57,561 nt of DNA from Thermoanaerobaculia bacterium (lineage in GTDB: Bacteria > Acidobacteriota > Thermoanaerobaculia > Gp7-AA8), in the NCBI GenBank assembly GCA_016650215.1, contig JAENWF010000033.1, forward strand, positions 1-57,561. Direction: 5' to 3'. Made by a program: the position numbers and the translations under genes. Within the stretch, counting starts at the first letter, position 1. Every line of letters starts with the position of its first letter. Shown here in pieces: positions 12,874-49,270 of this stretch. The notes beneath the pieces were generated by a model. The model did not search any database. It was not told the origin of the DNA and worked only from the letters and a program-made list of their open reading frames with translations.

Positions 12874-12886
12874 TTCTCGCGCCTTT

Positions 12887-12980: not shown

Positions 12981-12997
12981 AAGGCCCTGGAATTTAC

Positions 12998-24841: not shown

Positions 24842-25540
24842 TCAGATGTCTCCGTAGCGTGCAGTGATGATTGCAACTGCGCAAATCGCGGCGGTTTCGG
24901 CGCGAAGCCGGCGAGGCCCGAGGCGGCGGAAAAGGCAGCTGCTCGCGCGGGCCGATGCGATCTCCTCTTCCGACCATCCCCCCTCGGGGCCGATGAGCAG
25001 TGTGGCGGTGTTTACCGGCTCTTCCAATGACGGTTGACTGTCGGCGTCGAAGAGCAGGCGTGTGCCGTCGCGGCGGATCACGTCGTTGAACGGGGTGGGG
25101 ACTTCGATGCGAGGTGTGACGGCGCGCCCCGACTGTTTGACTGCCTCGAAGACGATCTTCTCCCATCGCTCCGACTTGCCGCGATAACGTTCCGGGCGAA
25201 GCTCCACCCGCTCGGTCACCATCGGTATGAACGCGACGACTCCGAGCTCGGTCGCTTTCTGCAGCACGATCTCGAACTTTTCGAGATTGATGATCGACAT
25301 TGCGAGCGTGAGGCTGAGCGGGCTCTCGCGCGAAGGAATCGTCGACTCAATGATCACACTCATCGAGCTGGACGCAATGCTCTTCACTCGTCCCGCCGCG
25401 CTTCCTCCGCGTCCGTCGAATACTTCGACCGCTTCGCCATCCCGCACGCGGACGACCCGCGACGCGTGATGGAACTCTTCGCCGGCGATCGTGATCTCGC
25501 CAGGCGCGATCGGCTGGTCCGTGAAAATGCGATGGTGCAC
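24842..25540 (-). CDS. rsmE: 16S rRNA (uracil1498-N3)-methyltransferase
   Basis: LLIGPEGGWSEEE plus LGPRRLRAETAAI are RsmE hallmarks. GTG at 25540 gives 232 aa. The longer ORF-track start at 25639 runs through a family-B repeat. Confidence 0.85.
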   Translation of the reverse strand: MHHRIFTDQPIAPGEITIAGEEFHHASRVVRVRDGEAVEVFDGRGGSAAGRVKSIASSSMSVIIESTIPSRESPLSLTLAMSIINLEKFEIVLQKATELGVVAFIPMVTERVELRPERYRGKSERWEKIVFEAVKQSGRAVTPRIEVPTPFNDVIRRDGTRLLFDADSQPSLEEPVNTATLLIGPEGGWSEEEIASARASSCLFRRLGPRRLRAETAAICAVAIITARYGDI

Positions 25541-25560
25541 GCGGAGATGAGTTTGGCACA

Positions 25561-25706
25561 GGAGGACGAAAGGCCGCCGGCTGAAGCCGGCGCCACGTCG
25601 AGCATGGATGGTGGTGTTAGCCAGGCCGTGGAACATCAAGGCCTTGCTGATGACGGTATTCGCGCATGACGTAGCGCCGGCTTCAGCCGGTGGTTTTTCG
25701 TCCTCC
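25561..25706. repeat. family-B repeat, inverted pair
   Basis: GGAGGACGAAAGGCCGCCGGCTGAAGCCGGCGCCACGTCGAGCATGG (25561-25607) and its inverted partner CATGACGTAGCGCCGGCTTCAGCCGGTGGTTTTTCGTCCTCC (about 25665-25706). Confidence 0.85.
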
Positions 25707-25712
25707 CGGCGC

Positions 25713-26957
25713 TCACACCTCCGCGACCACGCTTGCTTCGGGTGCCATCAGCTCCGTATTCCGAATGAATGGCAGGAGAAGCAGCCCCGGGATGCCGAGT
25801 ACAAGTGTCAGCCAGAAGTACGGTGCGTAGCCCATGCTCTGCGCGAACACGCCGCTGAAGGAGCCGATCAGGAATCTTGTGAAGGCGAATGCGGCGCTCA
25901 GCATCGCGTACTGGGTCGCCGCATGCTCGCGATCGCTGATCGCCATGAGAAACGATAGAAAGGCCGCGGTGCCCAGGCCGCCGCAGAAGTTCTCGACAAC
26001 TACGACCGCGTAGAACATCGTTTGCGAAGGTTCAGCCGCGGCGGCGATCGCGTAGCCGGCGTTGGAGATGACCTGGAGAACGCCGAGCCAGAGCAGCGCG
26101 CGCCAGACGCCGAATTTTGACAGGAACGCGCCGCCGATGAACGCGCCTGCGATCAGGAACGAGAGACCGATGACCGTCGTGACGGTGCCGATCTCGGCAG
26201 TCGAGAACCCTTGATCGACCCAGAACGGCTTGACCATTGGCGTGAGCGCCGCGTCGCCGAGGCGGTAGATGAAGGCGAGAGCGAGAAAGATTGCGGCGGA
26301 GGGGCGGCGGAGCCACAGCCTGACTCCGGCGAACGGACTCTGATGCTGAGCAATGGCGCCCGCCTCGCGCGGGAGGAAGAATGTCGTGACGAACGAGAGC
26401 GCCATGATCGCGGCGGCCGTGAAGAACGCGCCGCGCCATCCGACGACCGCGGTGAGCGCAGCGAGCGCTCCGCCGGCGACGATCATCGCGCCGCGGTATG
26501 CCGTCACGCGCACCGAGTTCACGTAGCCGAGCTGCTCCTTCGGCGTGATGCGCACCGCCATCGCGTCGATCGCGATGTCCTGCGTTGCCGATGCGAACGC
26601 GAGAATCGCCACGATTGCGAAGAAGAGCGTCGTCATCTGCGGCGGAATCACCGCGAACGCGAACATCGTCGCGGTCAGAACGACGAGAGCGCCCGCCATC
26701 CATTGCCGGTACGAGCCGTAGCGGTCGATCAGCGGAGACCAGAGAAACTTCCACGTCCACGCTGAGCTGACCGCACTGATGAGCCCGATCTGCGCGAGCG
26801 AGATGTTCTGCGTCCGGAGATACAGCGGTAGCAGCTCATTGACGATGCCGAACGGGAATCCCTGCGAAAAGTAGAGCACGCCTGCGATCGCCGGCGCGAA
26901 CCACGCCGGCCGCCGAAGCGTCGTGAGAGGGCTCAATCCTTGCTCTTGCACGGTCAT
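25713..26957 (-). CDS. ampG: AmpG-family muropeptide MFS transporter
   Basis: FSQGFPFGIVNELLPLYLRTQNISLAQIGLISAVSSAWTWKFLWSPLIDRYG is the characteristic AmpG N-terminal block. 12 or more TM segments. Start at ATG 26957. Confidence 0.85.
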   Translation of the reverse strand: MTVQEQGLSPLTTLRRPAWFAPAIAGVLYFSQGFPFGIVNELLPLYLRTQNISLAQIGLISAVSSAWTWKFLWSPLIDRYGSYRQWMAGALVVLTATMFAFAVIPPQMTTLFFAIVAILAFASATQDIAIDAMAVRITPKEQLGYVNSVRVTAYRGAMIVAGGALAALTAVVGWRGAFFTAAAIMALSFVTTFFLPREAGAIAQHQSPFAGVRLWLRRPSAAIFLALAFIYRLGDAALTPMVKPFWVDQGFSTAEIGTVTTVIGLSFLIAGAFIGGAFLSKFGVWRALLWLGVLQVISNAGYAIAAAAEPSQTMFYAVVVVENFCGGLGTAAFLSFLMAISDREHAATQYAMLSAAFAFTRFLIGSFSGVFAQSMGYAPYFWLTLVLGIPGLLLLPFIRNTELMAPEASVVAEV

Positions 26958-26970
26958 CAGGAGGAACGAT

Positions 26971-27348
26971 ATGCGAAGAGCATCGTTTGCATTGGCAGTA
27001 ATTCTTCTCGCCGGAGCCTGCGGGTCCGCCGGTGGCATTCTCGGCGGCCTCGGCGGAATCCTCGGCAGTCCGTCGGCCGATCAACCCTCGGACGTTCGCG
27101 GCGTGGTCAGCGGAATCGACACGGGCGCGCAGCGCATCGACCTCGACGTCCAGTACGTGAACAACCTGCGCCAGAGCAGCTCGACGGGAGCGGTCTACTA
27201 CGACTCGCGCACCACGGTCGAGTATCAGGGGAACACGTACCGCGTCGAAGATCTCGAGCGTGGAGACGAGATCTCGGTCCGCGGCCACAACGACAGTAAC
27301 CGCTACGTCGCGGAAGTCATCACCGTGACGCGGAACGCGCGGAGCTGA
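26971..27348 (+). CDS. hypothetical lipoprotein (125 aa)
   Basis: ATG at 26971 follows AGGAGGA. Lipobox ILLAGAC. No family recognised. Confidence 0.65.
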   Translation: MRRASFALAVILLAGACGSAGGILGGLGGILGSPSADQPSDVRGVVSGIDTGAQRIDLDVQYVNNLRQSSSTGAVYYDSRTTVEYQGNTYRVEDLERGDEISVRGHNDSNRYVAEVITVTRNARS

Positions 27349-27363
27349 TCGTCATTTCGGCGA

Positions 27364-27399
27364 GTCATTCCGAGCGGCTAAACGCCGGCCCGGAATGAC
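27364..27399. repeat. short family-A-like hairpin between convergent genes (candidate terminator)
   Basis: GTCATTCCGAGCGGCTAAACGCCGGCCCGGAATGAC. It abuts the TAA of the minus-strand gene at 27400. Confidence 0.65.
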
Positions 27400-27918
27400 T
27401 TATCGGCGGTTGTCGCTGTTTCCCGTCGAGTAGACGGTCACAGGGAACTTCAGGCGTCCCACCGGCGTGTCGTACCACGCGTTGCCGCGGATCTCGTAGC
27501 GTGCGCGATCTCCGCGAATCAGGTCGGCGATCTCCGTGAAGAGCGTGCGGACCTGCTGATAGCCGAATCGTGTGCTGAGCCGGACGTCACCGTGACCGTT
27601 TGCGGGGATGTTGATCCGTTGCCGGCTGACGCCGTCGAGAATCCGCTGGTCGTTGATGAAAAGGTTGAAGTCGATCTGATCGAGTTTCAGCCCGACGCGG
27701 TTCGGGTTGTTGACCGCGATCGTGAAGTCGAGGTCGATGCTCGAGGACGAGAGCGGCAGCGCGATGTCGACTCGAGGCCGGATGTCGCGGATCGAGTAGC
27801 TCGGATTGACGATATCGAGCGTCTTCGCCAGCGAGCAACCGGTCAGGGCGACCGTCGCCAGGGCGAGCACGATGCAGAGGCCCGCGAGAACTGCTCCAAA
27901 GGTCAGTCGCTGTTTCAT
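27400..27918 (-). CDS. LEA_2 (WHy/late-embryogenesis-abundant type 2) domain lipoprotein
   Basis: Lipobox VALTGC. The pattern IDLDFTIAVNNPNRVGLKLDQIDFNLFINDQRI...ARYEIRGNAWYDTPVGRLKFP is typical of the LEA_2 domain. Start at ATG 27918. Confidence 0.75.
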   Translation of the reverse strand: MKQRLTFGAVLAGLCIVLALATVALTGCSLAKTLDIVNPSYSIRDIRPRVDIALPLSSSSIDLDFTIAVNNPNRVGLKLDQIDFNLFINDQRILDGVSRQRINIPANGHGDVRLSTRFGYQQVRTLFTEIADLIRGDRARYEIRGNAWYDTPVGRLKFPVTVYSTGNSDNRR

Positions 27919-27952
27919 GCTCGGGGACGGGTGCAAGGGGAGGGCCATTCGG

Positions 27953-28050
27953 GGCCGAGGGCCGAGGGAGGATCTGCGCGTCGCGTTTTGGGCACAACGT
28001 GTCCTGATCCGGTGCCTCACACTCGGCCCTTTGCTCTCAGCCCTCGGCCC
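27953..28050. repeat. inverted heptamer arrays (GGCCGAG type) flanking a spacer of about 50 bp
   Basis: Left units are GGCCGAG GGCCGAG GGAGGAT (27953-27973). Right units are CTCGGCC CTTTGCT CTCAGCC CTCGGCC (28023-28050), the reverse complement of the left unit. Confidence 0.75.
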
Positions 28051-28052
28051 TT

Positions 28053-28808
28053 ATGTTATGGTCTGCCGGTTGCACTCCCCATGACGACTATCGAGGTGAC
28101 GAATTGGCTGCAACCGCGATCATTGCGGCTTACAACGAAGAAGCGACCCTGGCCGAGGTTCTAACGGCTTTGAGCAGCAGCCCGCTCATCCACGAGATCA
28201 TCGTGGTCAGCGACGGCTCCACCGACCGCACGGTCGAGATCGCGCGCGGCTTCGATGTCACGACCATCGCATTGAAGGAAAATCGCGGCAAGGGCTATGC
28301 GATGCGCGTTGGCGTCGACTACGCGTCGAACGACGTCCTCTTCTTCGTCGATGGCGACATGTACAACGTCACCCAGCAGCACATTGACGATCTCATGCTG
28401 CCGGTCATGAACGGCGAATGCGACATGAACATCGGCGTGCGCCATCGCGGGCCGGTGCTCGATTTCATGCATCTGAAGTTGAAATGCGGGCCGGTGCTGT
28501 CGGGCATTCGCGTGATGCGGCGCAAGGTGTTCGAAACTGTGCCCCAGCAGTATCAGGAGCGCTTCAAGATCGAGGCAGCGCTCAACTGCTTCTGCGCGAA
28601 AGCTGGCTACCGGCAGCGCGAAACGATCATCTACAACCTCGGACACGTGATCAAAGAATCGAAGCGCGGCGTCAGGAGCGGACTCCTCAGCCGCTGGGAC
28701 ATGAGCCGCGAAGTGTTCCTGCTCCTCTTCGATCTCTACCTCTTCGAAACCTGGCGCTGGAACTCTCCGCAGGACGAGCCGGTCGCGGATTTCGATTTGT
28801 TCGAGTAG
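28053..28808 (+). CDS. glycosyltransferase family 2
   Basis: AIIAAYNEEATLAEVL, VVSDGSTDRT, ENRGKGYA and FFVDGDM are GT-A/GT2 motifs. The exact start is uncertain: ATG 28053 abuts the heptamer array. Confidence 0.82.
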   Translation: MLWSAGCTPHDDYRGDELAATAIIAAYNEEATLAEVLTALSSSPLIHEIIVVSDGSTDRTVEIARGFDVTTIALKENRGKGYAMRVGVDYASNDVLFFVDGDMYNVTQQHIDDLMLPVMNGECDMNIGVRHRGPVLDFMHLKLKCGPVLSGIRVMRRKVFETVPQQYQERFKIEAALNCFCAKAGYRQRETIIYNLGHVIKESKRGVRSGLLSRWDMSREVFLLLFDLYLFETWRWNSPQDEPVADFDLFE

Positions 28809-28815
28809 GCCCACA

Positions 28816-28850
28816 CATTCAACACTCAATGTTGAACGTTGAATGTTGAA
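28816..28850. repeat. abutting inverted heptamers, AT-rich (CATTCAA/TTGAATG type)
   Basis: CATTCAA CACTCAA | TGTTGAA CGTTGAA TGTTGAA. CATTCAAC pairs with GTTGAATG, and TTCAACA pairs with TGTTGAA. Confidence 0.7.
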
Positions 28851-28862
28851 GGTGTCGTCTGA

Positions 28863-29618
28863 ATGCGCGATCTCATCGACCGGACTTCTCCTTCCCTCGA
28901 ACCAAAGCAGCAGGTGGTGATGCATCAGAACTGGCATCACCTTCTGTTCCTGCATTGGGAGATTCCGGTCGCCGATCTTCAGAAGCTGGTGCCGCCCGGT
29001 TTGACGGTCGACACCTTCGATCGGAAAGCGTACGTAGGATTGATTCCGTTCACGATGACGGGCGTGCGGCCGGTGCTGATGCCGGCGCTGCCGGGCATCT
29101 CGAGTTTTCACGAGGTCAACGTTCGAACCTACGTGCATCGCAATGGCGCCGATCCGGGCGTCTGGTTTTTCAGTCTTGACGCCGCGAGCATGATCGCGGT
29201 CGAGGCAGCGCGCGCGGCGTACAAGCTTCCGTACTTTCAGTCGCGCATCGACCTCACAGTCGGCCGCGGAATGTTTCCGGAGATCGAGTTCACGAGTCAT
29301 CGCGAAGATCCGCGCGGCGCGATGCCGGCACACGCGCACATCCGCTACGCCGCGGTTGAAGGCCCCGTCGCACCGGCGAGGGAGAAAACCCTGGAGCACT
29401 TCCTCGTCGAGCGCTACATCCTTTACGCGAAGGATTCCGATCACGACCTCTACCGCGCGCGAGTCCATCACCAGCCGTACCCACTCCAGAAGGCCGATGT
29501 GCTGCAGCTCGACGAGACGCTCATCTGGGCCGCGGGTCTCCGTCGCTCCGACGCTGCGCCGATCCGCCACTACGCGCGCGAAGTGAACGTGAAGATCTAC
29601 GCGATCGAAAAGGTCTAG
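28863..29618 (+). CDS. DUF2071 (YqjF-like) domain protein
   Basis: QNWHHLLFLHWEIPVADLQKLVPPGLTVDTFDRKAYVGLIPFTM...SFHEVNVRTYV matches the DUF2071 pattern as I recall it. Confidence 0.75.
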   Translation: MRDLIDRTSPSLEPKQQVVMHQNWHHLLFLHWEIPVADLQKLVPPGLTVDTFDRKAYVGLIPFTMTGVRPVLMPALPGISSFHEVNVRTYVHRNGADPGVWFFSLDAASMIAVEAARAAYKLPYFQSRIDLTVGRGMFPEIEFTSHREDPRGAMPAHAHIRYAAVEGPVAPAREKTLEHFLVERYILYAKDSDHDLYRARVHHQPYPLQKADVLQLDETLIWAAGLRRSDAAPIRHYAREVNVKIYAIEKV

Positions 29619-29637
29619 CGGATCCTCACAACGGCTC

Positions 29638-31026
29638 TCAGATCCTGCCGTGGATGGACAGCGTCACCGCTCGACCCGGCGCCTGCGCGGCGTTTGCGTC
29701 GGACGAACCGGCATAGCGCTCGTCGAGGATGTTTCGTGCCGACAGCCTGAGATCGGCGCTCTCGTGGATCTTCCAGCCGGCGCCGAAGTCGATGACGGTG
29801 TGTGATGGACGCGCAGTCTCGACGGGTCCCGGACGATTGTCGGTGCCGAACCATGTCGCGCTCGTGAACACCGAACAGCGGCGGAGTGCCCATCGCAGCT
29901 CGAGATGACTCTTGAGCGGAGTGATGTCATCGAGCGCCTGGTCCCCGCTGTCCCCTCGCGCCGCACTGATGCTGCCTTGCATTGCGAGGTGACGTCCCAG
30001 CGGTGTCGCGAGCTCGAGCTCGACTCCGCGGATCTCCGCTTCACCGCGGTTGCGAAATGCGAAGTCGGTTCCGGACGCATAACGTTCGACGAGGTCATGA
30101 ATCCGATACTCGTACGCGAAGAACGCGATGGATCGCTGACCGCGCTGCCATCGAGCGGCATAGTCGCCCTGGAAACTTCGCTCCGGCTCGAGGTCCGGAT
30201 TTCCGACGACGAACCCGCGGCCGCTCACTCCGCGAAAGTAGCGGTCGGAGAGCGTCGGCTCGCGGAATCCGCTGCCGAGTTGCAGCGTCGTGCTGAACGC
30301 GCCAGCGGCCCATGTAAGTGCGGCGTGACCGGAGACCGCCTGATCCGATCGCGACCTGTTGCCGAAGGAACCACCTGCGTTGCGGACCCTCAGCGCGTCG
30401 ACGCGAGCACCGCCGCTGAACGTGAGCGCCGGGGTCAAGGGAAGGTCGGCGATGGCGAAGACTCCGATGTCGTGACGCGAGGCCTCACCAATGGAGACTT
30501 CATCGCGCCGCGTGAGTATTTTGTCCTGGGCGTCGAAGGCGATGATCGATCCGAGCGCGTGGACGTCAAAACGGCTCGTGACATCAACACCGGTGTGGAA
30601 CAAGGCGTTTGCCGTGGGCGTCTCCGCCGTCATCCGGAGCGATGCGTCTTTTGCCGTGACGTCAGCACTGGAGATCTGCCTTCGTGTGGTGGCATTGGGC
30701 AGCCGCTCACGACGAGTGATGATGTCGTACGTGCTCACGGCCGCGCGCAATTCGATCCGCGTAGCCCCAATCCCCTGGTCTACGCCGACCGTCAACCGAT
30801 TCGCATCCTCCTCGGGGTAGTACGTTCGCGTCACGTTCGAGTCGGCGCCGGGGGCTCCGATGTCACGGCCCCGATCGACGGAGACGGCGGCGCGTACGAC
30901 GGCGCTGCGGACTGGGAGTACCAGGCGGAACGCGCCTCCGGTGCCACTGAACTGTGAGTTCGCGATTGGCACTCCGCCACCGCCTCCTGGCTGGGACGTC
31001 GACGACATCGTCGTCACAGGACTCAC
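29638..31026 (-). pseudogene. TonB-dependent receptor, C-terminal beta-barrel only (no signal peptide or plug)
   Basis: Barrel blocks TDFAFRNRGEAEIRGVELELA and the C-terminal NILDERYAGSS...PGRAVTLSIHGRI. The in-frame stop lies only 66 nt upstream of the GTG at 31026, and there is no room for a plug before the neighbouring gene. Confidence 0.6.
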
Positions 31027-31104
31027 GGATACTCCGTTCGCAGGCTTGATCGGCGAAACGGGAGTTTGCGCTCCATAACGTCCGCGTTTTCAGCGTTCAA
31101 CAAG

Positions 31105-31140
31105 AGGGGCTTCGCATCTGCGAAGCCCCTTTTTCTTTTT
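31105..31140 (+). terminator. strong intrinsic terminator (12-bp stem plus T-tract) with no plus-strand gene to terminate
   Basis: AGGGGCTTCGCA-TC-TGCGAAGCCCCT followed by TTTTCTTTTT. Confidence 0.7.
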
Positions 31141-31257
31141 GCGGCGTCCCACCTTTGATCCCTCTCCCGTCGCATTCGACTTCGGCGTCTGTAGACTGTG
31201 CAGCCAGGTCAAGCTCGTGGGGCGATACGGCCTGTCGAGCGGATACAAGGAGAACTC

Positions 31258-32112
31258 GTGAACCTCGTCGTCGGATCGACTGGATTGCTGGGACGGATGA
31301 TCACCCTCGGTCTCCTCGAACGCGGGCTGCCCGTTCGATCACTGTTGCGCGGAGACGCTTCTATTGCGGGAGTCGAAAGCGTTCGCGGGGACTTGAAGGA
31401 TCCTTCCTCACTCGAGAAGGCGATGCATGGCATCACGACCGTCATCACGTCGGCCACCTCGGCGCAGCGCGGTGGCGACGACAATGTCAGCTCGGTCGAC
31501 GATGCCGGGAATCGCAGTCTCATCGACGCTGCGAAGCGGGCGGGCGTCAGCCGCTTCATCTTCATCTCCGCGGCCGCGGTCGATGAAGCCAGCCCGGTTC
31601 CGCTCTTCGCAGCGAAAGCGCGAGTCGAGAAGCACCTGCGCGACAGCGGGATGGAATGGACGATCGTCGCTCCTCACGCATTCATGGATGTCTGGTTTCC
31701 GCTGCTCATCGGCAGCGCGATCGGTTCAGGACAACCGGTTTCTCTCATCGGAGGGGGAAAGCGGCGGCATTCGTTCATTGCCGTCGAGGATGTCGCGCGG
31801 TTTGCGGTCGCGGCGGTCGGGAATCCGGCTGCCAGGAATCTGAGGATCGTGATCGGCGGTCCGGAGGCGCTCTCGTTTCAAGATGTCGTTCGCCAGAGCT
31901 CTGAGATTCTCCGTCGGGAAATACCCACGCGCGTGATCGAGCCAGGCGAGCCCATCCCGCATCTCCCCCCGCCTCTGAACCAGGTGATCGGCCAGCTCGC
32001 CGCCGGACTCGAACAGCAGGACGTCATTCTCGACACGCAAGCGACTGCCAGAACGTTCGGAATAACGTTGACGCCCGCCGCGACGGTGCTCCGGCGGATG
32101 TTCGCCGGCTGA
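31258..32112 (+). CDS. NmrA-like / atypical SDR NAD(P)-binding protein
   Basis: VNLVVGSTGLLGRMI (GxxGxxG), RFIFISAA, WTIVAPHAFMD. GTG at 31258 follows AAGGAG. Confidence 0.8.
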   Translation: MNLVVGSTGLLGRMITLGLLERGLPVRSLLRGDASIAGVESVRGDLKDPSSLEKAMHGITTVITSATSAQRGGDDNVSSVDDAGNRSLIDAAKRAGVSRFIFISAAAVDEASPVPLFAAKARVEKHLRDSGMEWTIVAPHAFMDVWFPLLIGSAIGSGQPVSLIGGGKRRHSFIAVEDVARFAVAAVGNPAARNLRIVIGGPEALSFQDVVRQSSEILRREIPTRVIEPGEPIPHLPPPLNQVIGQLAAGLEQQDVILDTQATARTFGITLTPAATVLRRMFAG

Positions 32113-32118
32113 TTACCC

Positions 32119-32167
32119 AGGACTGGGTGCTGAGTGCTGAGTGCTGAGGACTGAGGACTGAGTGAGT
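32119..32167. repeat. heptamer tandem array, left arm (AGGACTG / AGTGCTG units, 7 units)
   Basis: AGGACTG GGTGCTG AGTGCTG AGTGCTG AGGACTG AGGACTG AGTGAGT. Confidence 0.9.
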
Positions 32168-32189
32168 CCTCGTCGAGCCGGGCATTCAT

Positions 32190-32281
32190 GTCATCCCGAG
32201 CGAAGCGAGGGATCCCCCGCGTCCGGGCGATGTTCGCATTAGCGCGGGGGGTCCTTCGCCGTCTTCGCGGCTCAGGATGAC
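32190..32281. repeat. family-A palindromic element (92 bp), homologous to 12887..12980
   Basis: GTCATCCCGAGCGAAGCGAGGGATCCCCCGCGTCCGGGCGATGTTCGCATTAGCGCGGGGGGTCCTTCGCCGTCTTCGCGGCTCAGGATGAC. Confidence 0.88.
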
Positions 32282-32305
32282 AAGAGCCTTGGGCGATGCT
32301 TGACT

Positions 32306-32368
32306 CAGTCCTCAGCACTCAGTCCTCAGTCCTCAGCACTCAGCACTCAGCACTCAGTCCTCAGTCCT
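32306..32368. repeat. heptamer tandem array, right arm (CAGTCCT / CAGCACT units, 9 units), reverse complement of 32119..32167
   Basis: CAGTCCT CAGCACT CAGTCCT CAGTCCT CAGCACT CAGCACT CAGCACT CAGTCCT CAGTCCT. Units 3-8 are complementary to left units 1-6 (42 bp, 1 mismatch). Confidence 0.9.
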
Positions 32369-32426
32369 TAATCCCGCCACAACCTTTCCTCATTTGACGT
32401 CAAGCGCGCGTCATAGACTTGCTTTC

Positions 32427-35400
32427 ATGAAGCGTTTCTTTTTTCCTGCGCTCTTTCTGATTGCCACGTATGCATCGGCGGCGAACACGCTCCGCGTTAC
32501 GACCGCAGGCCCTGTCGGCGAAGTCGCCACGCTGCGCGAGGCGAACGAGGTGCGAGTCGTCTTCTCCGAGCCGATGGTCGCGCTCGGAAAGATTCCTGAG
32601 CCGGTCACGGCGCCGTTCTTACGGATCGATCCGCCGGTCGCGGGAACGTTCCGGTGGTCCGGGACGACGACGCTGATCTTCACGCCGAAAGCGCCGCTGC
32701 CATTCTCGAAACGCTTCGAGGTCACAGTCGATGCGAGCGCAAAGTCCGTCGCCGGAAACACGCTCGACCGCGTTTACCGCTTCGCGTTCATGACGCCTTC
32801 GATTCGTCTGACGAGCACCGAGTGGTATCGCAAGGGCGGCCGCGCGGACGCGCCGGTCATCATTGCGCTCCGTTTCAATCAGCCGGTTGATGTCGCGGCG
32901 ATCGTCCAGCATCTGCAGCTTCGCACGGCCGCGCACGACGTGCAGGTGCCGCAGATCATGGCCCCTGCGAAGGCGGGCGCCGATTTCAGTGCAAAGCAGG
33001 CGCGCGCGGTCGCGGCAGGCGCGGCCGGCGGCGTCAACGTTTTTGCGAATCTCGCACAGCAATGGGACAAGGAACGTTTCCCTCCCGCGAACGATCTAGT
33101 CGTACTCGAGACGAAGCCCGGAATCGTGTCGGACACATGGATCGAAGTACTACTCGACGACAAGCTCGCCGGCCGTTCGCAGCAGTACACCGTCCAGCTC
33201 GAGCCGATGTTCTTCGTCAACGGAATGGGATGCCGCTACGAATGCGATCCCGATTCTTCGAATCCGATCGACTTTCGCTCGATGGGAGGAGTTCGCTTCG
33301 ATGACGTGAGCAAGGTCGTCACAGTCACCGACATCACCGATCCCGCGAAAGAAGTGAAGCTGATCCCGAAGACTCAACCGCGCGAGTACGACTACCCATC
33401 GACCTCCTACACGCTCGACGAGCTCGGTTACACAACTCAGCCTGCGCGAACGTACCGCGTGCGAGTCGAACCGTCGCTCCCCTCGATCGATGGACAGCGT
33501 CTCGACTACGTCTGGACAGGGGTAGTCGAGTACTGGCACCGCACCGCGTTCATCAGCTTCGGGGACGGCCACGGCGTGTGGGAATCATCCGGCGGATCGA
33601 TTCTCCCGTTCCACGCGCGCAATGTCCGCAGCGTTCAGCAGTGGCTCGCCCCACTCTCGCTGGACGAGCTCGTTCCCACGATTGTGGCGCTGCAGAACAA
33701 CGGTTACCGCTCCGCGCCGCCGAAGACCCAGCCGAAATCGCGGGCGCTGGAGGTCGTTCCCGACAAGACGCAGTCAATCGGCCTCGACATCGCCCCGGCG
33801 ATCGGAAGCGACAACAAAGGTCTTCTCTGGGCCGCGATGAAGCCGGCAAACCCGATCGCGAAGTCACGCCTCAACGATCCGTCGACGCGTGCCTCGATCG
33901 TCCAGGCGACGAACCTCGGCATCAGCGTCAAAGACAGCCCGCTCAACACACTCGTTCTCGTTACTCGTCTTGACGACGGCGCGCCGGTCGCCGCCGCGAA
34001 CGTCACGATCCGAACTGTCGACAACAAAGTCTTCTGGAGCGGAACGACCGACGCGCACGGCATCGCAATCGCCGAAGGAACGCGCCTTCGCATCAAAAAG
34101 CGCGACAAACCGCAGAAGCCGGCCGCTCCAAACATGATGCAGGAGGATCAGTCGGACTACGAGTGGTGGCGCGTCTTCAACGACCTTCACTTCGTCGTCA
34201 CCGCCGAGAAAGACGGCGACATCGCCTACGTCGGCAGCGACTGGAACGAAGGGATCACTCCATGGGAGTTCAACGCGAACTTCACTCCCGACGAGGCTCT
34301 CCCGCTGCTGCGCGGCACGATCTTCACCGACCGCGGCGTCTACAAGCTCGGTGAGGAAGTGAACGCGAAACTCGTTGTCCGCAGCGACACGCCGACCGGT
34401 ATGCAGCTTCTGCCATCCGGCACGAAGATCAGCGTCGCGCTGCGCGACAGCCAGAACAAGGAGATCGCTAAAAAAGAGCTTTCCCTCAACGACTGGAGCA
34501 GCAGCGAATGGCAGTTTCGCGTCCCCGCCGACGCACCGCTCGGGACGTGGACGATGTTCGCGCGCATCGAAGGGCAGGAGCGCCAGATCAACGGTGACTT
34601 TCTTGTCGCCGCCTATCGGCGTCCCGACTTTCGCGTCGACGTCACGCTCGACGCCCCGACCTCGATCGCCGGAACCAATGTCACCGGACGCACCGCCGGC
34701 CGCTATCTCTACGGCGGCGCGATGGCGAACCGCGATGCGCGATGGACCTGGTCGAAAATGCCTTCGTGGGACGTCCCGCAATCAATCCGCGAACGCTGGC
34801 CCGCCGACCGTTACACCTTCCTCGGCTGGGACGACGACCGTCCGTCGGATCGAGTCACCGTCACATCCGAAGAGCCGGAGCTCGATGCGCAGGGGAATCT
34901 CACGCTCACTCTTCCGACCGAGAAGTCGGACGGTTGGCCCTACGACTATCGTCTCGAAACCGAAGTGACGGACGTGACGCGGCAACGCATCGCGAACCGC
35001 GCGACGTTCCGCGTCGACCCGGCCCCGTGGTACATCGGCGTGAAGACGCCGCCGTATTTTGGGGAAGCGAAAAACGGCATCGACACGGAGATCGTCGCGG
35101 CAGGAGTCGACGGACTCGGTGTCGCCGGCGTGCGCGTTCAGGTCTCGCTTCTGAAAGTTCAGTACAACAGTGTTCGCCGCGCATCGGGCAACGGCTTCTA
35201 CGAATGGGAAACCGAGCGGAAAGACGTGCCGTCGGGCGAGTGGACGATCACGACGCAGTCGCAGCCAGTCCCGCTCCGCATTCCGATCGCCGAAGGTGGG
35301 CAGTATCGGCTCATTGCGACGGCGAACGATGGTGATGGGCGCACGACCACGACACGCCTCTGGTTCTACGCGAGTGGTCCCGGCTATTCGGCGTGGGAAC

Positions 35401-38165
35401 GCTACGACCACAACCGCATCGATCTAATCCCGGAGAAGAAGAACTACAAACCGGGTGACACGGCGCGGATCATGATCAAGTCGCCGTGGGAGCGCGCGAC
35501 CGCGCTGCTTACGACCGAGCGCGAAGGCGTCCGCACGTGGACGCCGTTCGAGCTGACATCGACGCAGCAGACGATCACCGTTCCGATCACCGAGCGCGAC
35601 ATCCCGAACGTCTTCATCTCCGTCCTTCTGATCAAAGGACGGACGCAGCAGCCGGTGACCGAGGATGCAGGCGATCCCGGCAAGCCGGCGTTCCGCCTCG
35701 GCTATGTCGAATTGAAGGTCGAGGACGCGCTCAAGCGACTCAAGGTCGACGTTGACGCCGACCGCGACGAGTTCCGTCCCGGCTCGAAAGCGCGCGTCGA
35801 CGTGAACGTGAAGGACGCGAGCGGTAAACCCTCGCAGTCTGAGGTCACGTTGTGGGCAGTCGATTACGGCGTGCTTTCGCTGACCGCGTACCAGACGCCC
35901 GATGTGCTCGACTCGATCTATCTCGACAAGGCGCTGCAGGTGCTCAACGAAGACTCGCGCCAGCGGATCGTCAGCCGCCGCGTGCTCACTCCGAAAGGGG
36001 CGAGCGACGGCGGAGGCGGCGGACGCGACGCGGGACCGGGGACGATGCGGAAAGATTTCCGCGTGCTCGCGTTCTGGCTCGGCTCGATCGTCACCGACGC
36101 GAGCGGCAAGGCCCGAACCGAGGTGAAGCTGCCGGAATCGCTGACGACGTACCGGATCATGGCGGTTGCTGGCGACCGCACGTCGCGGTTCGGATGGGCG
36201 CAGGACGAGATCAAGGTCAACAAACCGCTGATGCTGACGCCGGCGTTCCCGCGATTCCTGACGCCGGGAGACACCGCGACGTTCGGCGCCGCGGTTCACA
36301 ACCAGCTCAAGCGCGGCGGGAAGGCGACGGTCACCATCAAGTCGCTCGACCCGAGTGTCATCACGATCAACGGATCCGATCGCGCGACGATCGAGATCAA
36401 GCCGGGCGCCGCATCGGAAGTCCGATTCGATGCAGTCGCGCGTTCGGTCGGGATCGCACGCATTCAGATGAGCGTGAAGATGGGACGCGAGAGCGATTCA
36501 TTCGAAGATGTGATTCCGGTGCGCGTGCTGGTCAGTCCCGAGACTGTTGCCGCATACGGCGAGGCGAAACCGAAGGCGAGCGAGAAACTCGAGCTGCCTA
36601 CGAATGTGGTTCCTGGATTTGGCGGGCTGCGACTCGAGCTCTCGTCGACCGCCATGGTCGGCCTAGGCGAAGGGGCGCGGTACCTGGTCGAGTATCCGTA
36701 CGGCTGCGCCGAACAGCGCGCGTCGACAGGACTCGCGTTGATGCTCGCGGCCGACCTCGGCGAAGCATTTGACCTGCCGGGCGTCGATGCCGCGAATGCG
36801 CGGCCGATGGCGCAGTCGAATCTCACACGTCTCGAGCAGTTCCAGTGCGGCAACGGCGGGTTCGCATTCTGGCCGGGCCAGTGCACCAGCGTCTCGCCGT
36901 ATCTATCGAGTTACGTGATGCATGTCCTGCAGCGTGGCAAGAAGCTTGGCTACAACGTCAGTGATGACACGCTCAATCGCGGCTACGAGTACCTCACGCG
37001 CAATTTGAGCGAGACACCGGGGCCGGTGAACGAAGGCTGGTGGCCTGCGTACACCGCGTGGCAGGCCTTCGCGGTGAAGGTGCTGGCCGAGGGCGGACGC
37101 AATGCTGACTCGCACATCAATCGGCTCTTTGGATACGCCGATCGGATGCCGATCTTCGGCATCTCGCATCTCGCCGACGCACTGATCGCGAAAGGCGAGA
37201 AGGGTGAGCGGCTCGACGATCTGCTGCGCCGCATCCGCAACGCGATGCTGCCTGAAGCGGGATTCGCGCATGTGGGCGAGCTGTCGGATCCTTACCTTCT
37301 CTGGTTCTGGAACTCGAACGTCCGCTCGACCGCGATCGCGATGGGGACGCTCGTCCGCAACGGCTCGGATGAAGAGCTCGTGAAGCGGATGGTGCGCTGG
37401 CTCATGCGTGTCCGGAAGGATGGGCGATGGGGCAACACGCAGGAAAACGCGTGGGCGATGGGCTCACTCGTGGACTATTACCGCAAGTACGAATCGGAGG
37501 CGCCCGACTTTGCCGGCATCGTGACACTCGGTGCGGCGACGATCGCGCAGGAAGAGTTCCGCGGCCGCTCGACCGAGGCGAAAACGAAAGAGATTCCGAT
37601 CGGACAGCTCTCCTCGGGAACGATCACGTTCGACCGGCAGGGGAGCGGGACACTCTTCTATCTGATGCGGCTGCGCTACGCATCGCTCGAGCGCAATCTC
37701 GGCGCGATGAATCAGGGATTCGTCGTGGAGCGTCGTTACGACGTGAACGACGCCGTGGCGTCGCAGTTCAAGGCAGGCGACCTGGTGCGCGTCACGCTGA
37801 CCATCCGCAACACCAAGGAGCGGCGCTTCGTCGCGGTGACCGATCCGATTCCAGCGGGGACGGAGCCGGTCGACACGCTCTTCGCGACGACAGCAAGCGA
37901 CGCCAACGAGCAGCGGCGAGAAAGCGCGCGGGCGAGCGACTGGACGGCGTGGTGGCAGCGCGGAGGGTGGGATCACGAGGAGCGTCACGACGATCGCATC
38001 AACGTCTTCGCGACGCGTCTCAGCGAGGGCGAGCACACGTACACATACCTGCTGCGCGCGACGACATCGGGCACCTTCATGACCGCGCCGGCGCATGTCG
38101 AAGAGATGTACGAGCCTGAAGTCTTCGGGCGAACCGCCTCGAGCATCATCGAGGTCAGTAAGTGA
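32427..38165 (+). CDS. bacterial alpha-2-macroglobulin family protein (YfhM/ECAM type), 1912 aa
   Basis: Signal peptide MKRFFFPALFLIATYASA. Intact thioester motif YPYGCAEQRAS (CAEQ at 36705-36716). Its size and the immediately downstream pbpC match the known A2M-PBP1C gene pairing. Confidence 0.9.
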   Translation: MKRFFFPALFLIATYASAANTLRVTTAGPVGEVATLREANEVRVVFSEPMVALGKIPEPVTAPFLRIDPPVAGTFRWSGTTTLIFTPKAPLPFSKRFEVTVDASAKSVAGNTLDRVYRFAFMTPSIRLTSTEWYRKGGRADAPVIIALRFNQPVDVAAIVQHLQLRTAAHDVQVPQIMAPAKAGADFSAKQARAVAAGAAGGVNVFANLAQQWDKERFPPANDLVVLETKPGIVSDTWIEVLLDDKLAGRSQQYTVQLEPMFFVNGMGCRYECDPDSSNPIDFRSMGGVRFDDVSKVVTVTDITDPAKEVKLIPKTQPREYDYPSTSYTLDELGYTTQPARTYRVRVEPSLPSIDGQRLDYVWTGVVEYWHRTAFISFGDGHGVWESSGGSILPFHARNVRSVQQWLAPLSLDELVPTIVALQNNGYRSAPPKTQPKSRALEVVPDKTQSIGLDIAPAIGSDNKGLLWAAMKPANPIAKSRLNDPSTRASIVQATNLGISVKDSPLNTLVLVTRLDDGAPVAAANVTIRTVDNKVFWSGTTDAHGIAIAEGTRLRIKKRDKPQKPAAPNMMQEDQSDYEWWRVFNDLHFVVTAEKDGDIAYVGSDWNEGITPWEFNANFTPDEALPLLRGTIFTDRGVYKLGEEVNAKLVVRSDTPTGMQLLPSGTKISVALRDSQNKEIAKKELSLNDWSSSEWQFRVPADAPLGTWTMFARIEGQERQINGDFLVAAYRRPDFRVDVTLDAPTSIAGTNVTGRTAGRYLYGGAMANRDARWTWSKMPSWDVPQSIRERWPADRYTFLGWDDDRPSDRVTVTSEEPELDAQGNLTLTLPTEKSDGWPYDYRLETEVTDVTRQRIANRATFRVDPAPWYIGVKTPPYFGEAKNGIDTEIVAAGVDGLGVAGVRVQVSLLKVQYNSVRRASGNGFYEWETERKDVPSGEWTITTQSQPVPLRIPIAEGGQYRLIATANDGDGRTTTTRLWFYASGPGYSAWERYDHNRIDLIPEKKNYKPGDTARIMIKSPWERATALLTTEREGVRTWTPFELTSTQQTITVPITERDIPNVFISVLLIKGRTQQPVTEDAGDPGKPAFRLGYVELKVEDALKRLKVDVDADRDEFRPGSKARVDVNVKDASGKPSQSEVTLWAVDYGVLSLTAYQTPDVLDSIYLDKALQVLNEDSRQRIVSRRVLTPKGASDGGGGGRDAGPGTMRKDFRVLAFWLGSIVTDASGKARTEVKLPESLTTYRIMAVAGDRTSRFGWAQDEIKVNKPLMLTPAFPRFLTPGDTATFGAAVHNQLKRGGKATVTIKSLDPSVITINGSDRATIEIKPGAASEVRFDAVARSVGIARIQMSVKMGRESDSFEDVIPVRVLVSPETVAAYGEAKPKASEKLELPTNVVPGFGGLRLELSSTAMVGLGEGARYLVEYPYGCAEQRASTGLALMLAADLGEAFDLPGVDAANARPMAQSNLTRLEQFQCGNGGFAFWPGQCTSVSPYLSSYVMHVLQRGKKLGYNVSDDTLNRGYEYLTRNLSETPGPVNEGWWPAYTAWQAFAVKVLAEGGRNADSHINRLFGYADRMPIFGISHLADALIAKGEKGERLDDLLRRIRNAMLPEAGFAHVGELSDPYLLWFWNSNVRSTAIAMGTLVRNGSDEELVKRMVRWLMRVRKDGRWGNTQENAWAMGSLVDYYRKYESEAPDFAGIVTLGAATIAQEEFRGRSTEAKTKEIPIGQLSSGTITFDRQGSGTLFYLMRLRYASLERNLGAMNQGFVVERRYDVNDAVASQFKAGDLVRVTLTIRNTKERRFVAVTDPIPAGTEPVDTLFATTASDANEQRRESARASDWTAWWQRGGWDHEERHDDRINVFATRLSEGEHTYTYLLRATTSGTFMTAPAHVEEMYEPEVFGRTASSIIEVSK

Positions 38166-40390
38166 ATCCTCGCGAACTCATTCGGACTCTGTGTGGCGCC
38201 GCCGTGATTCTCATCGCGGTCGCGGCCTGGATCCGACTCGGGCCGATCGCGCCGGAGGTGCTCGATCAGCGGCGATTCATCTCGTCGACGATCGTCGATC
38301 GGAATGGTGTCGTTCTGTACGAGCCGCTTTCGGCGAGCGGGGGCCGCGGTATCGCGCTGACATCAACGTCGTTGCCGCTGCGCGTGGTCGACGCGACGCT
38401 CGCGGCGGAGGATCGGCGCTTTTTTCGCCATCCCGGCGTCGATCCGATCGCGGTCGCGCGCGCAGCGTGGCACAACGTGAAGAACGCGGGCCTCGTCGAG
38501 GGAGGCTCGACACTGTCGCAGCAGACCGCAAAGCTGCTGCTCGGCTCGCGCGATCGCGGCGTCGCGACGAAGGTCCGCGAGACGTTGCTGGCACTGAGGA
38601 TCGAGCATCGATTCAGCAAGCGCGAGATCCTCGCGATGTATCTGAATCTCGCGCCATACGGCAACCGGATTCACGGCATCTCGCGCGCAAGCCGAGTCTA
38701 CTTTGGCTGCGCGCCGGAAGATCTGACGCACGCGCAGGCGGCGTTTCTTGCGTCACTGCCGCAGAGACCCGGCGCGTTCAACCCGCTGCGCGATGCGACG
38801 CGCGCGGTGCCGAGGCAGCGATACGTGCTCTCGCGGATGAAGATGCCGGCGAATGAGCGCGCACAGGCGCTGCGCGAGCGTCTCGAGCTCTCGGGCGGCG
38901 GCGAGCCGCTCGTCGCCCAGCATTTCGTCGAGAGGGTGCTCGAGCGGAGCAACACGCCCGTCATCAGGACGACGCTCGACGTCGGGTTGCAGCGCGAAGT
39001 TCTCGGCATCATCGCCGCGCAGCGGCAAAGACTCATCGCTCACGGCGCGACGAGCGTCGCAGTGGCTGTGCTCGACAACCGCACGGGCGACTGGCTCGCG
39101 TGGGAAGGTTCGGGCGATTACTTCGGCGACGGCTTCGGCGGCGCGATCGATGCGGTCGTGACGCCGCGTCAGCCCGGCTCGACGCTCAAGCCCTTCACGT
39201 ACGCGCTCGCATTCGAGAGGGGATACTCGCCGGCGACGGTGCTCCCCGATGTTGTCTCGAATTTTCCGACCGCGGAGGAAGGCGTCGTCTATTCGCCGCG
39301 CAACTACGATGGCCGCTATCGCGGGCCGCTGCGCGTGCGAAGCGCGCTCGCCGGATCGCAGAACGTGCCGGCAGTCGCCATGCTCGCGCAGCTCGGCACG
39401 CCGTCGCTCCATCGCCTTCTCCGCAACGCCGGCTTCACAAACCTCACGAAGACCGCCGACTACTACGGCCTCGGCCTCACCCTCGGCGACGCCGAGGTAA
39501 GACTCGACCAGTTGATCGCTGCCTACGCAGCGTTCGCGCGCGGAGGACGCCCGATCACGCCGCGGTTTCGATTCGATGACCCTCGACCCTCGACTCTCGA
39601 CCCTCGACCCTTGTTTTCCAAAACGACCTCCTTCTGGATCGCCGACATCCTCTCCGACCGTGCCGCGCGCGAGTACGCCTTCGGCAGCGGCGGCAGTCTC
39701 GACTTTCCGTTCCGCGTCGCGGTCAAGACCGGAACCTCGCAGGCGTATCGCGACAACTGGACGATCGGCTTTACGCGCGACGTCACCGTCGGCGTCTGGG
39801 TAGGAAACTTCGATCGAGAAGAGCTGCGCAACTCGACAGGCGTGACCGGCGCAGCGCCAATCTTCAACGCGGTCATGCTCGCGGCAGTGAAGCGCGTGCG
39901 CGGCTCGTTGCCGATCGGCGACGAAGAGCCGATCGTCGCTCCGCCGGATGATCTCGAGGAGGTTGCGATCTGCGCGTTGTCCGGCCTCCGGCCTTCGACG
40001 TTCTGCGAGTCGACGGAGCGCGAGTGGGCGCGAAAGGATGCGCCGGCCGAATTCTGCTCGTGGCATCACGATGAGTATGTCGACTGGCCGCCTGAATATC
40101 GCGCGTGGGCTCGCGCAGCGTTGCCACCCGCGCCGCAACCGCGGCGCCCGCCCGCGCAAAGAATGGCTGCTCTGCGCGTCGTCAATCCGCCGGACGGCGC
40201 GACGTATCTAATCGATCCGACCCTGCGCAGCGGATTTCAGACGCTGAAGTTCCGCGCGACCGCGAGTGCGCGATGGGAAATCAACGGCCGCGCCGTCCCC
40301 TCGTCATGGCCGCTCCAACGCGGCAAACACACGATCGCCGCCGTCGATGGGCGCGGGAATCGGGACGAGGTCGAGATTTACGTAAAGTAG
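38162..40390 (+). CDS. pbpC: penicillin-binding protein 1C (bifunctional glycosyltransferase/transpeptidase)
   Basis: GT51 motifs EDRRFFRHPGVD and GGSTLSQQ. Transpeptidase motifs STLK, SQN and KTGTS. PBP1C-type C-terminal domain. GTG at 38162 overlaps the A2M TGA (GTGA). Confidence 0.9.
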   Translation: MNPRELIRTLCGAAVILIAVAAWIRLGPIAPEVLDQRRFISSTIVDRNGVVLYEPLSASGGRGIALTSTSLPLRVVDATLAAEDRRFFRHPGVDPIAVARAAWHNVKNAGLVEGGSTLSQQTAKLLLGSRDRGVATKVRETLLALRIEHRFSKREILAMYLNLAPYGNRIHGISRASRVYFGCAPEDLTHAQAAFLASLPQRPGAFNPLRDATRAVPRQRYVLSRMKMPANERAQALRERLELSGGGEPLVAQHFVERVLERSNTPVIRTTLDVGLQREVLGIIAAQRQRLIAHGATSVAVAVLDNRTGDWLAWEGSGDYFGDGFGGAIDAVVTPRQPGSTLKPFTYALAFERGYSPATVLPDVVSNFPTAEEGVVYSPRNYDGRYRGPLRVRSALAGSQNVPAVAMLAQLGTPSLHRLLRNAGFTNLTKTADYYGLGLTLGDAEVRLDQLIAAYAAFARGGRPITPRFRFDDPRPSTLDPRPLFSKTTSFWIADILSDRAAREYAFGSGGSLDFPFRVAVKTGTSQAYRDNWTIGFTRDVTVGVWVGNFDREELRNSTGVTGAAPIFNAVMLAAVKRVRGSLPIGDEEPIVAPPDDLEEVAICALSGLRPSTFCESTEREWARKDAPAEFCSWHHDEYVDWPPEYRAWARAALPPAPQPRRPPAQRMAALRVVNPPDGATYLIDPTLRSGFQTLKFRATASARWEINGRAVPSSWPLQRGKHTIAAVDGRGNRDEVEIYVK
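39578..39612 (+). repeat. 5-unit heptamer tandem array inside the pbpC CDS
   Basis: GACCCTC GACCCTC GACTCTC GACCCTC GACCCTT, which encodes DDPRPSTLDPRPL. Confidence 0.9.
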
Positions 40391-44219: not shown

Positions 44220-44705
44220 GTGGTCGCGAGCCTGCTGATCGGCGCAGGATTCCTCTTCCTGTCGCGCGGAGCGGCAGGGCGGGCCATGCGGCTCGCGTGC
44301 GCGTTCCTGCTCCTCATCGCCGGTGCCGCGTTCGCGCTTCCTCGCGGAGAGTCGGCGGTCACCTGGCAGAAGTACGACACGAAGACGCTCGCCGCCGCTT
44401 CAGCGGCGGGGAAGCCGGTCGTGATCGACTTCTTCGCCGACTGGTGTCTGCCGTGCAAGGAGCTCGACGCGAAGACGTTCGGAGACCAGCGCGTCGCCAG
44501 AGAGATGGATCGCTTCGTACGGGTGAAGGCCGATCTCACGCTCGCTGACGATCCCGCTACGCTGGCGCTGTCGAAGCAGTACGGAATCATCGGAGTCCCC
44601 GCGGTCGTCTTTCTCGACGCGAAAGGCGAGGAACTGCGAGAGCTGCGCCTCAATCAATTCGAGTCCGCGGATCCGTTCCTCGCGAGACTCAAACAGGCGC
44701 GCTAA
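44220..44705 (+). CDS. two TM helices plus a thioredoxin domain (equivalent to DsbD TM7-8 and the gamma domain)
   Basis: VVASLLIGAGFLFL, LACAFLLLIAGAAFAL, then KPVVIDFFADWCLPCKELD (CxxC). GTG at 44220 is 6 nt after the TAG, in the same frame. Confidence 0.75.
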   Translation: MVASLLIGAGFLFLSRGAAGRAMRLACAFLLLIAGAAFALPRGESAVTWQKYDTKTLAAASAAGKPVVIDFFADWCLPCKELDAKTFGDQRVAREMDRFVRVKADLTLADDPATLALSKQYGIIGVPAVVFLDAKGEELRELRLNQFESADPFLARLKQAR

Positions 44706-49261: not shown

Positions 49262-49270
49262 TCGACGAAG

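Follow-up and report, generated by a model that had tools for sequence, protein, structure and literature searches.

The contig JAENWF010000033.1 of one Thermoanaerobaculia (Acidobacteriota) metagenome-assembled genome (MAG) from an uncultured soil bacterium, which was analyzed over its entire length of 57,561 bp and is called the window throughout, contains a large palindromic structure between a gene for an NmrA-like protein and the gene for an alpha-2-macroglobulin (A2M). The locus raises the question of what kind of element occupies this spacer, and whether it is connected to the gene in front of it, to the gene behind it, or to neither. The best explanation overall, to which a probability of about 0.6 is assigned, is a composite: a convergent hairpin of tandem heptamers resembling STRR (short tandemly repeated repetitive) sequences, which would have been generated by slippage, would have received a separate repeat, designated family A, by insertion, and may act as a barrier or stabilizer at the 3' end of the preceding gene. 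The structure is made up of the following features:

32119..32164, + strand: left (5') arm, tandem heptamers AGGACTG GGTGCTG AGTGCTG AGTGCTG AGGACTG AGGACTG AGTG, corresponding to (CTGAGKR)n
32304..32368, + strand: right (3') arm, 9.3 tandem heptamers CTCAGTC / CTCAGCA (CTCAGYM)
32111-32115 and 32369-32373: outermost stem segment, GATTA pairing with TAATC in the minimum-energy folds
32165..32188, + strand: unique 24-nt spacer AGTCCTCGTCGAGCCGGGCATTCA, delimited by alignment boundaries and an in-silico deletion fold; presumed original loop of the heptamer hairpin
32189..32304, + strand: family-A repeat of 116 nt at the junction of loop and 3' arm, built from a palindrome at 32190-32281 (motif GTCATCCYGAGCGAAGCGARGGATC), which is followed by the 3' tail AAGAGCCTTGGGCGATGCTTGAC

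A repeat finder delimited two arms of 46 nt each, 32119-32164 and 32316-32361, which are complementary in 45 of 46 positions (98%) and separated by 151 nt. Complementary arms, pairing in slipped registers and a count of seven heptamers on the left and nine on the right had been proposed in an initial annotation made from the sequence alone. The complementarity was confirmed, and several slipped registers do pair, at 77-90% (for instance 89% for 32119-32162 with 32325-32368). The count holds for the right arm, where Tandem Repeats Finder detected 9.3 copies with a period of 7 (32304-32368); on the left, 6.0 copies were found (32123-32164) and the seventh unit is only partial. The order of unit variants in the left arm is mirrored by units 3-8 of the right arm. 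The left arm is rich in purines and in G, and TGA is present in all three of its frames. A degenerate pattern of three heptamer units matched 12 times in the 57.5-kb window, compared to 0.01 matches expected by chance. All these matches are located at the hairpin, the only locus of the window with this heptamer unit.

Folding of the region 32100-32390 yielded a hairpin within a hairpin, both for RNA (-187 kcal/mol, z = -14.2 versus shuffled sequence) and for DNA (-101 kcal/mol, z = -13.6), in agreement with the earlier description of a nested structure filling the spacer. The heptamer arrays are intergenic, lying between the stop codon of the NmrA-like gene (32112) and the A2M start codon (32427). 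The stem, since it reaches out to GATTA and TAATC, overlaps the stop codon of the NmrA-like gene; this TGA (32110-32112) forms part of GCTGATT, a degenerate first heptamer, and also of the stem's base. Two more candidates for heptamer hairpins in the window, 49255-49350 and 51855-51965, were discarded because their folds were not significant (z = -2.0 and -1.5, respectively). A separate observation concerns positions 6981-7021, where a 15-nt tandem repeat, GAGTGCTGCCTCAGC, is present in 2.8 copies and brings together the left-arm unit AGTGCTG and the right-arm unit CCTCAGC. The convergent spacer in which it is located also contains, right beside it, a GC-rich hairpin of considerable length (about 7023-7097; fold z = -2.75).

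The inner part of the structure is a separate repeat. Between the arms, the palindrome 32190-32281 folds into an imperfect hairpin, as had been noticed before, with pairing of 32186-32201 to 32270-32285 and of 32205-32221 to 32243-32259. The family-A motif matched eight times in the 57-kb window, compared to none expected, and two copies are full-length. Positions 32189-32304 and 12885-13006 are identical in 100 of 118 aligned columns (85%), and the repeat ends with a 3' tail terminating in CTTGAC. In the 40 columns flanking the alignment on either side, only 11 and 9 matches were obtained, which is the level of chance. With this identity, sharp boundaries and unmatched flanks, family A represents a discrete element of about 116 nt. 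Its second copy, at 12885-13006, stands free and is not contained in any hairpin. When 32189-32303 were deleted in silico, a 46-bp stem with a 24-nt loop remained (-109 kcal/mol, z = -12), similar to simple hairpins detected in other genomes (L035, L037, L044). Since a simple hairpin is left after its removal, the family-A core appears to have been inserted into the heptamer hairpin's loop. The spacer had originally been treated as a single element, a view that does not agree with an independent 116-nt core present elsewhere as a free copy, nor with unrelated centers in hairpins sharing the same arms (see below). A systematic pairing of family-A cores with inverted arrays, which had also been considered, was rejected, because the copy at 12885-13006 has a one-sided array on its left and no outer hairpin fold.

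Family A itself shares properties with repetitive extragenic palindromic (REP) sequences and REPINs: it is a repeated, short, imperfect extragenic palindrome with two inverted motifs forming a hairpin of about 100 nt. Small dispersed repeats within heptamer arrays were reportedly described by Elhai et al. in 2008. In being a repeated extragenic palindrome of about 95 nt with two inverted motifs, the family-A core resembles a REPIN (PMC3116915). REP palindromes are targets for other elements (IS1397; Tobes & Pareja 2006; both as cited in PMC3116915), which parallels an insertion into the hairpin loop. The heptamer hairpins as a class also resemble REP sequences in preferring the 3' ends of genes and spacers within operons (PMC3116915). 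They differ from REP, bacterial interspersed mosaic elements (BIME) and REPINs in having outer stems of tandem arrays without a fixed consensus, the unit varying by locus; moreover, no gene for a REP-associated tyrosine transposase (RAYT) was seen on the contig, where a domain scan of 30 mid-size open reading frames (ORFs) revealed neither Y1_Tnp nor another transposase or RAYT domain.

Several further observations were made on family A and its relatives in the window. To the left of the copy at 12885-13006, at a distance of 20 nt, 7-8-nt units GTTAACT GTTAACC GTTAGACC GTTGTACC GGTAGACC are found (12828-13006 for the whole arrangement). Both full-length copies thus adjoin short tandem arrays, of which the window has few others, and this may reflect an insertion preference. 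At 44744-44942, a 67-bp unit that includes the family-A half-motif GATCCTTCGCTTCGCTCAGGATGAC is repeated three times in tandem (98% matches) and contributes to the eight motif matches of the window; this array is located downstream of a thioredoxin-like gene (44220-44705), and a related half-site is present at 44706-44735. At 8975-9113, a palindromic element of about 135 nt with the ends CCCTGAGCGAAGCGAAGGGTC and GATCCTTCGCTTCGCTCAGGATGAC is bordered by single heptamer-like units, AGTGCTGAGT on the left and GAGGACT on the right. A minimal hairpin, GTGTCATCCTGAGCCG-TCTA-CGCGGCTCAGAATGACAC, occurs at 52841-52878.

The outer part of the structure proved to be widespread. For a genome scan, one genome per species was searched with a pattern of four CTCAGYM units, which revealed at least 120 loci in other genomes. 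Among the matches listed, Nostocales, Blastocatellia, Pyrinomonadaceae, Thermoanaerobaculia, Chloroflexota, Nitrospirota, Planctomycetota, Proteobacteria, Chlorobi and Firmicutes are represented. The unit CTGAGTG/CTGAGGA itself was found in Nostoc, Anabaena, Calothrix and Fortiea. The earlier comparison with cyanobacterial STRR heptamers was right; ACTGAGG is one base off the complement of STRR1 (CCCCAGT). The matches listed also include 17 loci with a partner array on the opposite strand within 600 nt, and in 16 of these the polarity is that of the window, (CTGAGNN)n followed by (CTCAGNN)n. In these partnered loci, unit variants always match between both arms. The centers show no relation to one another and measure between 13 and about 230 nt; at several of these loci the structure is a simple hairpin with a 13-21-nt loop.

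A general detector applied to all DNA gathered predicted 72 hairpins with stems of tandem units, 35 of them in the CTNAG unit family. In the set of loci orthologous to the A2M region, which was not selected for heptamers, arrays of at least three copies had a period of 7 in 14 cases, compared to three with a period of 6, five with a period of 8 and none with a period of 9 or 10; eight of these 14 have an inverted partner. Of 43 hairpins whose loop measures 50 nt or more, eight hold an inner palindrome of 12 bp or longer. No sequence conservation was detected beyond the arrays past a partial unit. In a contig of the Heliobacteriaceae (L095, 6752-6970), outer arms of (AGGGGCG)n surround inner arms of (CTGAGTG)n.

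These data bear on two rival explanations. The first is an assembly artefact of a short-read MAG. The window is indeed a MAG contig, repeats and inverted repeats are error-prone in assembly, and copy numbers could be collapsed. However, each array comprises 46-65 nt and is shorter than a read, the flanks connect two intact genes in frame, and the same architecture was encountered more than 70 times, across dozens of independent assemblies, among them the complete genome of Calothrix PCC 7716 (L079), so that an artefact is extremely unlikely. The second takes the entire structure, some 265 bp, for a miniature inverted-repeat transposable element (MITE) or the end of an insertion sequence (IS), with the heptamer arrays as terminal inverted repeats. 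Inverted termini are present, and one Acidobacteriota contig (L040, 733-856 and 2699-2843) harbors two copies in which the CTGAGTG arms and an inner palindrome, GAGTTCAAGCTTTTAGCTTGCT, are common; the central loop and the flanks differ. Yet no target-site duplication was found at 32110 and 32374, where the flanks GCCGGCT and CCGCCAC show no direct repeat, and the 57-kb window contains no second copy of the whole structure. Hairpins with the same arms within a single genome (L003, L038) have unrelated centers, nothing is conserved beyond the arrays, and no transposase was among the 30 window ORFs scanned. A plasmid database search yielded only two matches, both to 42-nt stretches of array and both without annotation. 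A mobile element of this kind is therefore considered very improbable.

Comparison with described repeats places the locus among known systems. According to the initial annotation, no element class with such a layout had been described, and STRR sequences were not described as inverted pairs; published work contradicts both statements. Rehm et al. (2015) reported GGGAATC heptamer arrays in Xanthomonas that form convergent inverted pairs, 70-75 of them per genome and under-represented between divergent ORFs (PMC4692102). The window locus resembles them in that one unit forms two neighboring arrays on opposite strands, which can pair with each other, in an intergenic region with the G-rich arm first; as in Xanthomonas, such pairs are rare between divergent ORFs and vary in length among relatives. 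It differs in its CTGAGKR units lacking a GGG run, in its acidobacterial host and in the second palindromic repeat nested in the loop. Since CTGAGTG and CTGAGGA contain no G-tracts, a G-quadruplex is not possible. In cyanobacteria, hairpins of 7-bp STRR repeats are described from the hupS-hupL spacer and from the vicinity of 3' gene ends, and roles as stabilizer, in translational coupling or as terminator were suggested for them (PMC2670836). The arrays of the window share with them the tandem 7-nt units in at least three copies, the intergenic location and the capacity to form a hairpin, either close to the preceding gene's 3' end or between operon genes. Differences are the host phylum, the longer and near-perfectly mirrored arms and the inner family-A element. 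TAACTGA direct repeats of Beggiatoaceae, cyanobacteria and Bacteroidetes are located just upstream of start codons, with one inverted case reported (PMC4679880). They are also intergenic heptamer arrays with a CTGA core scattered across phyla; the window arrays, in contrast, form an inverted pair right after a stop codon. From these comparisons it is very likely that the locus is a composite of two repeat types, each already known in kind, and not a new class.

The location of the hairpins relative to genes was determined in spacers of at least 60 nt, with control spacers for comparison. Genes were taken from greedy longest-ORF calls, which are crude and do not come from a gene finder; a G1-minus-G2 codon score for the removal of shadow ORFs had shown no discrimination and was replaced by these calls and the control set. 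Among 41 spacers with a hairpin, 26 were co-directional, 12 convergent and three divergent, compared to 265, 69 and 105, respectively, among spacers without one. Hairpins are thus depleted from divergent spacers (odds ratio 0.25, p = 0.017), and a median of 14 nt separates the hairpin from the stop codon. The class is located at the 3' ends of genes; mis-called ORFs would blur this pattern and not create it. The polarity of the arms is also pronounced. G exceeds C in the 5' arm in 62 of the 72 hairpins, and in 27 versus 6 in unit families that were not chosen by the search pattern, which agrees with the 'always convergent' rule of Xanthomonas (PMC4692102).

The second flank of the locus, between hairpin and A2M, was examined along with the genes on either side, whose annotation as NmrA-like, A2M and pbpC is matched by Pfam domains:

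31261..32112, + strand: NmrA-like NAD(P)-binding gene (Pfam NAD_binding_10, 8e-28; NmrA, 3.5e-25), ORF open from 31198
32373..32392, + strand: conserved block CCCGCCACAACCTTTCCTC outside the hairpin, also present in L121, L122 and L123 and duplicated in more distant orthologous loci
32414..32419, + strand: -10-like TAGACT, 7 nt before the A2M ATG, a TAnACT-type element found in orthologous loci
32427..38165, + strand: A2M gene, ATG at 32427 (Pfam bMG10, A2M_BRD, A2M, MG2, bMG3)
38162..40390, + strand: gene for a pbpC-type penicillin-binding protein (Pfam Transgly, Transpeptidase, BiPBP_C), overlapping A2M by 4 nt

The A2M protein is 100% identical to P0001 from a Thermoanaerobaculia MAG, and the nearest orthologue shows just 73% identity. 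Upstream regions were compared for the window (32373-32429), L121 (3940-4003), L122 (3930-4003), L123 (1283-1350) and L138-L190. The conserved block (CCCGCCACAA...) directly follows the hairpin and marks the upstream limit of conservation in all relatives. Among 83 orthologous A2M loci, most have a TAnACT-type element 7-11 nt upstream of the ATG, and no Shine-Dalgarno sequence is present. This arrangement suggests a leaderless-type A2M promoter, with a predicted start site at or near the ATG; the hairpin would then lie upstream of the A2M transcript. Across Thermoanaerobaculia, the A2M upstream region is conserved and contains one or two copies of CGCCACAAT / CCCGCCACAW, suggesting a putative site for a shared regulator. 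In a more distant clade, an extra conserved stretch of about 190 nt precedes A2M, with a possible small upstream ORF (GGAGACGGCGATG).

With respect to the hairpin, the orthologous sites vary. It occupies the same position in L121, with the unit GTAGTCG, and in L122, with the unit CGCAGAG, and is missing from L123, where the conserved block follows the stop codon within 8 nt, and from the P0002 contig. The site is therefore occupied in three of the five nearest loci, above what the background rate would suggest. The gene preceding A2M also changes, from the NmrA-like gene in the window to a divergent 151-aa ORF in L121 and a DUF2071 gene in L122. These comparisons show that the hairpin is gained and lost at orthologous sites and that A2M does not need it. 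Transcription of the structure as a leader of A2M had been raised in the initial annotation, and a structured 5' leader or attenuator regulating the A2M/pbpC operon would fit its position directly upstream of A2M and the presence of similar hairpins at this position in L121 and L122 despite different upstream genes. The evidence speaks for another arrangement: the TAnACT element without a Shine-Dalgarno sequence points to a start at or near the ATG, the hairpin stops 58-65 nt before the ATG, ahead of the conserved CCGCCACA block, two relatives lack it, and its sequence is unrelated between orthologous loci. Furthermore, an Rfam scan of the locus gave no match at the gathering score, and a scan by E-value gave only chance-level matches to miRNA and C/D-box families. 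A leader function is accordingly very unlikely. Within the operon of L122, a heptamer hairpin (GGACCTT)n ... (CCAAGGT)n is present at 9758-9866 between the A2M stop codon and pbpC; it would resemble REP sequences in Escherichia coli or the STRR hairpin between hupS and hupL.

The composite, STRR-like hairpin proposed at the outset could have arisen and could act as follows. Its outer part is a convergent pair (CTGAGKR)n ... (CTCAGYM)n from the widespread class found just after stop codons, and its inner part is a separate REP/MITE-like palindromic repeat of 116 nt, family A, that apparently landed in the loop. The arrays would lengthen and shorten through replication slippage, leading to seven units on one side and nine on the other, and the mirroring of the arms would be maintained by arm-to-arm copying, either through a template switch or through repair within the fold-back. 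At the RNA level, the mRNA of the NmrA-like gene would end in or cross the stem of about 46 bp and the inner hairpin (-187 kcal/mol). The stem would hinder 3' exonucleases and serve as a pausing or terminating site that lacks a U-tract, and as such would separate the upstream transcript from the A2M/pbpC operon, which probably has its own leaderless-type promoter 50 nt further on. The anatomy of the locus, its composite make-up, its recurrence and its gene context are demonstrated; the effect on RNA and the copying between arms are what we infer. A role as 3'-end barrier or stabilizer for the upstream mRNA, insulating the A2M promoter, is plausible but unproven.

A number of observations weigh against this proposal. 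Besides the crude ORF calls on which the gene context depends, the hairpin is not followed by a U-tract: its tail is UCCUUAAUCC, and a consensus scan of 31900-32600 gave no terminator. Over the whole class, the enrichment of T in the tails is weak (2.6 versus 1.7 T per 8 nt), and five or more T occur in only 11%. Selection on the RNA of the sense strand was not seen, since among co-directional cases the sense fold was the more stable one in 10, compared to 16 in which the antisense fold was. Neutral DNA, if tolerated only where it is harmless, would just as well be depleted from divergent spacers and lie close to stop codons, and the empty orthologous sites show that the hairpin is dispensable. 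Weakly T-rich tails and the lack of strand bias argue against a conventional terminator or RNA selection on one strand. The locus does share with intrinsic (Rho-independent) terminators a stable GC-rich hairpin directly 3' of a gene; its stem is many times longer and symmetric on both strands, and a canonical terminator was rejected because of the missing U-tract.

Several of these points are also those of the main rival, neutral or selfish repeat DNA without function, in which arrays made by slippage, an inverted copy made by template switching and a palindromic repeat landed in the loop are tolerated 3' of a gene. The unit sequence is wholly different between orthologous sites, some of which are empty, and neither a sense-strand bias nor a U-tract is seen. 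In addition, heptamers are an over-represented class of bacterial simple repeats, and their excess was ascribed to polymerase slippage (Mrazek 2007, as cited in PMC4692102 and PMC4679880); published studies of the Xanthomonas arrays found no function (PMC4692102). Neutral DNA does not readily account for arms that stay 98% complementary, including the order of unit variants, for a polarity that is strongly non-random overall and in families outside the search pattern, or for the occupation of three of the five nearest orthologous sites. Complementarity, polarity and occupancy together indicate some constraint or directed process, which is not necessarily a host function. Neutrality is possible but regarded as less likely, and the composite hairpin with a possible 3'-end role is preferred.

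A more far-reaching proposal can be derived from the stop codons within the arms. In all 33 hairpins of the CTNAG family examined, stop codons are present in two or three frames of the 5' arm; in other hairpins they occur in the 5' arm in 23 of 39 and in the 3' arm in 11 of 39. Because a purine- and G-rich 5' arm with TGA or TAG in two or three frames is encountered on both strands, a ribosome or an ORF arriving from either side would be halted just before a very stable stem. Hairpins with tandem-heptamer stems would then constitute one cross-phylum class of polar, bidirectional 'all-frame stop plus hairpin' modules at 3' ends, generated and homogenized by arm-to-arm copying, and the window locus would be a member with a passenger palindrome in its loop. 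The statistics behind this proposal are modest, and as an account of the class it is regarded as doubtful.

Other observations concern the neighborhood of the locus. Within the pbpC ORF, a heptamer array GACCCTC of 4.9 copies is located at 39578-39611, in a stretch matching the transpeptidase domain, and reads through as ...DDPRPSTLDPRPL...; it is unusual to find a heptamer array, here of 35 nt, within a coding sequence. A comparison of the region 24842-32112 with L121 and L122 showed that synteny is maintained (genes for an RNA methyltransferase, MFS, LEA_2, ... A2M, pbpC and thioredoxin). In the relatives, A2M is preceded by a segment with GT2, a 150-aa ORF and DUF2071; the window has, in its stead, a 469-aa ORF together with genes for a TonB-dependent receptor barrel and the NmrA-like protein. 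On the right-hand side, the breakpoint of this replaced segment upstream of A2M coincides with the position of the hairpin.

Taken alone, the locus is of modest consequence: a heptamer hairpin is combined with a REP-like palindrome, and the composite apparently does not regulate A2M/pbpC. Heptamer repeats have been known since 1990, as STRR sequences, and their over-representation was shown in 2007; to our knowledge, their origin and role are still without an explanation. What is added here on the class is a hairpin form with the same unit across many phyla and a constant polarity of its arms, located at 3' ends, with a quick turnover at orthologous sites and a loop that can accept other palindromic repeats. 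The data on the class lead to concrete hypotheses, for which hosts that can be cultured, for example Nostoc or Xanthomonas, would allow a test.

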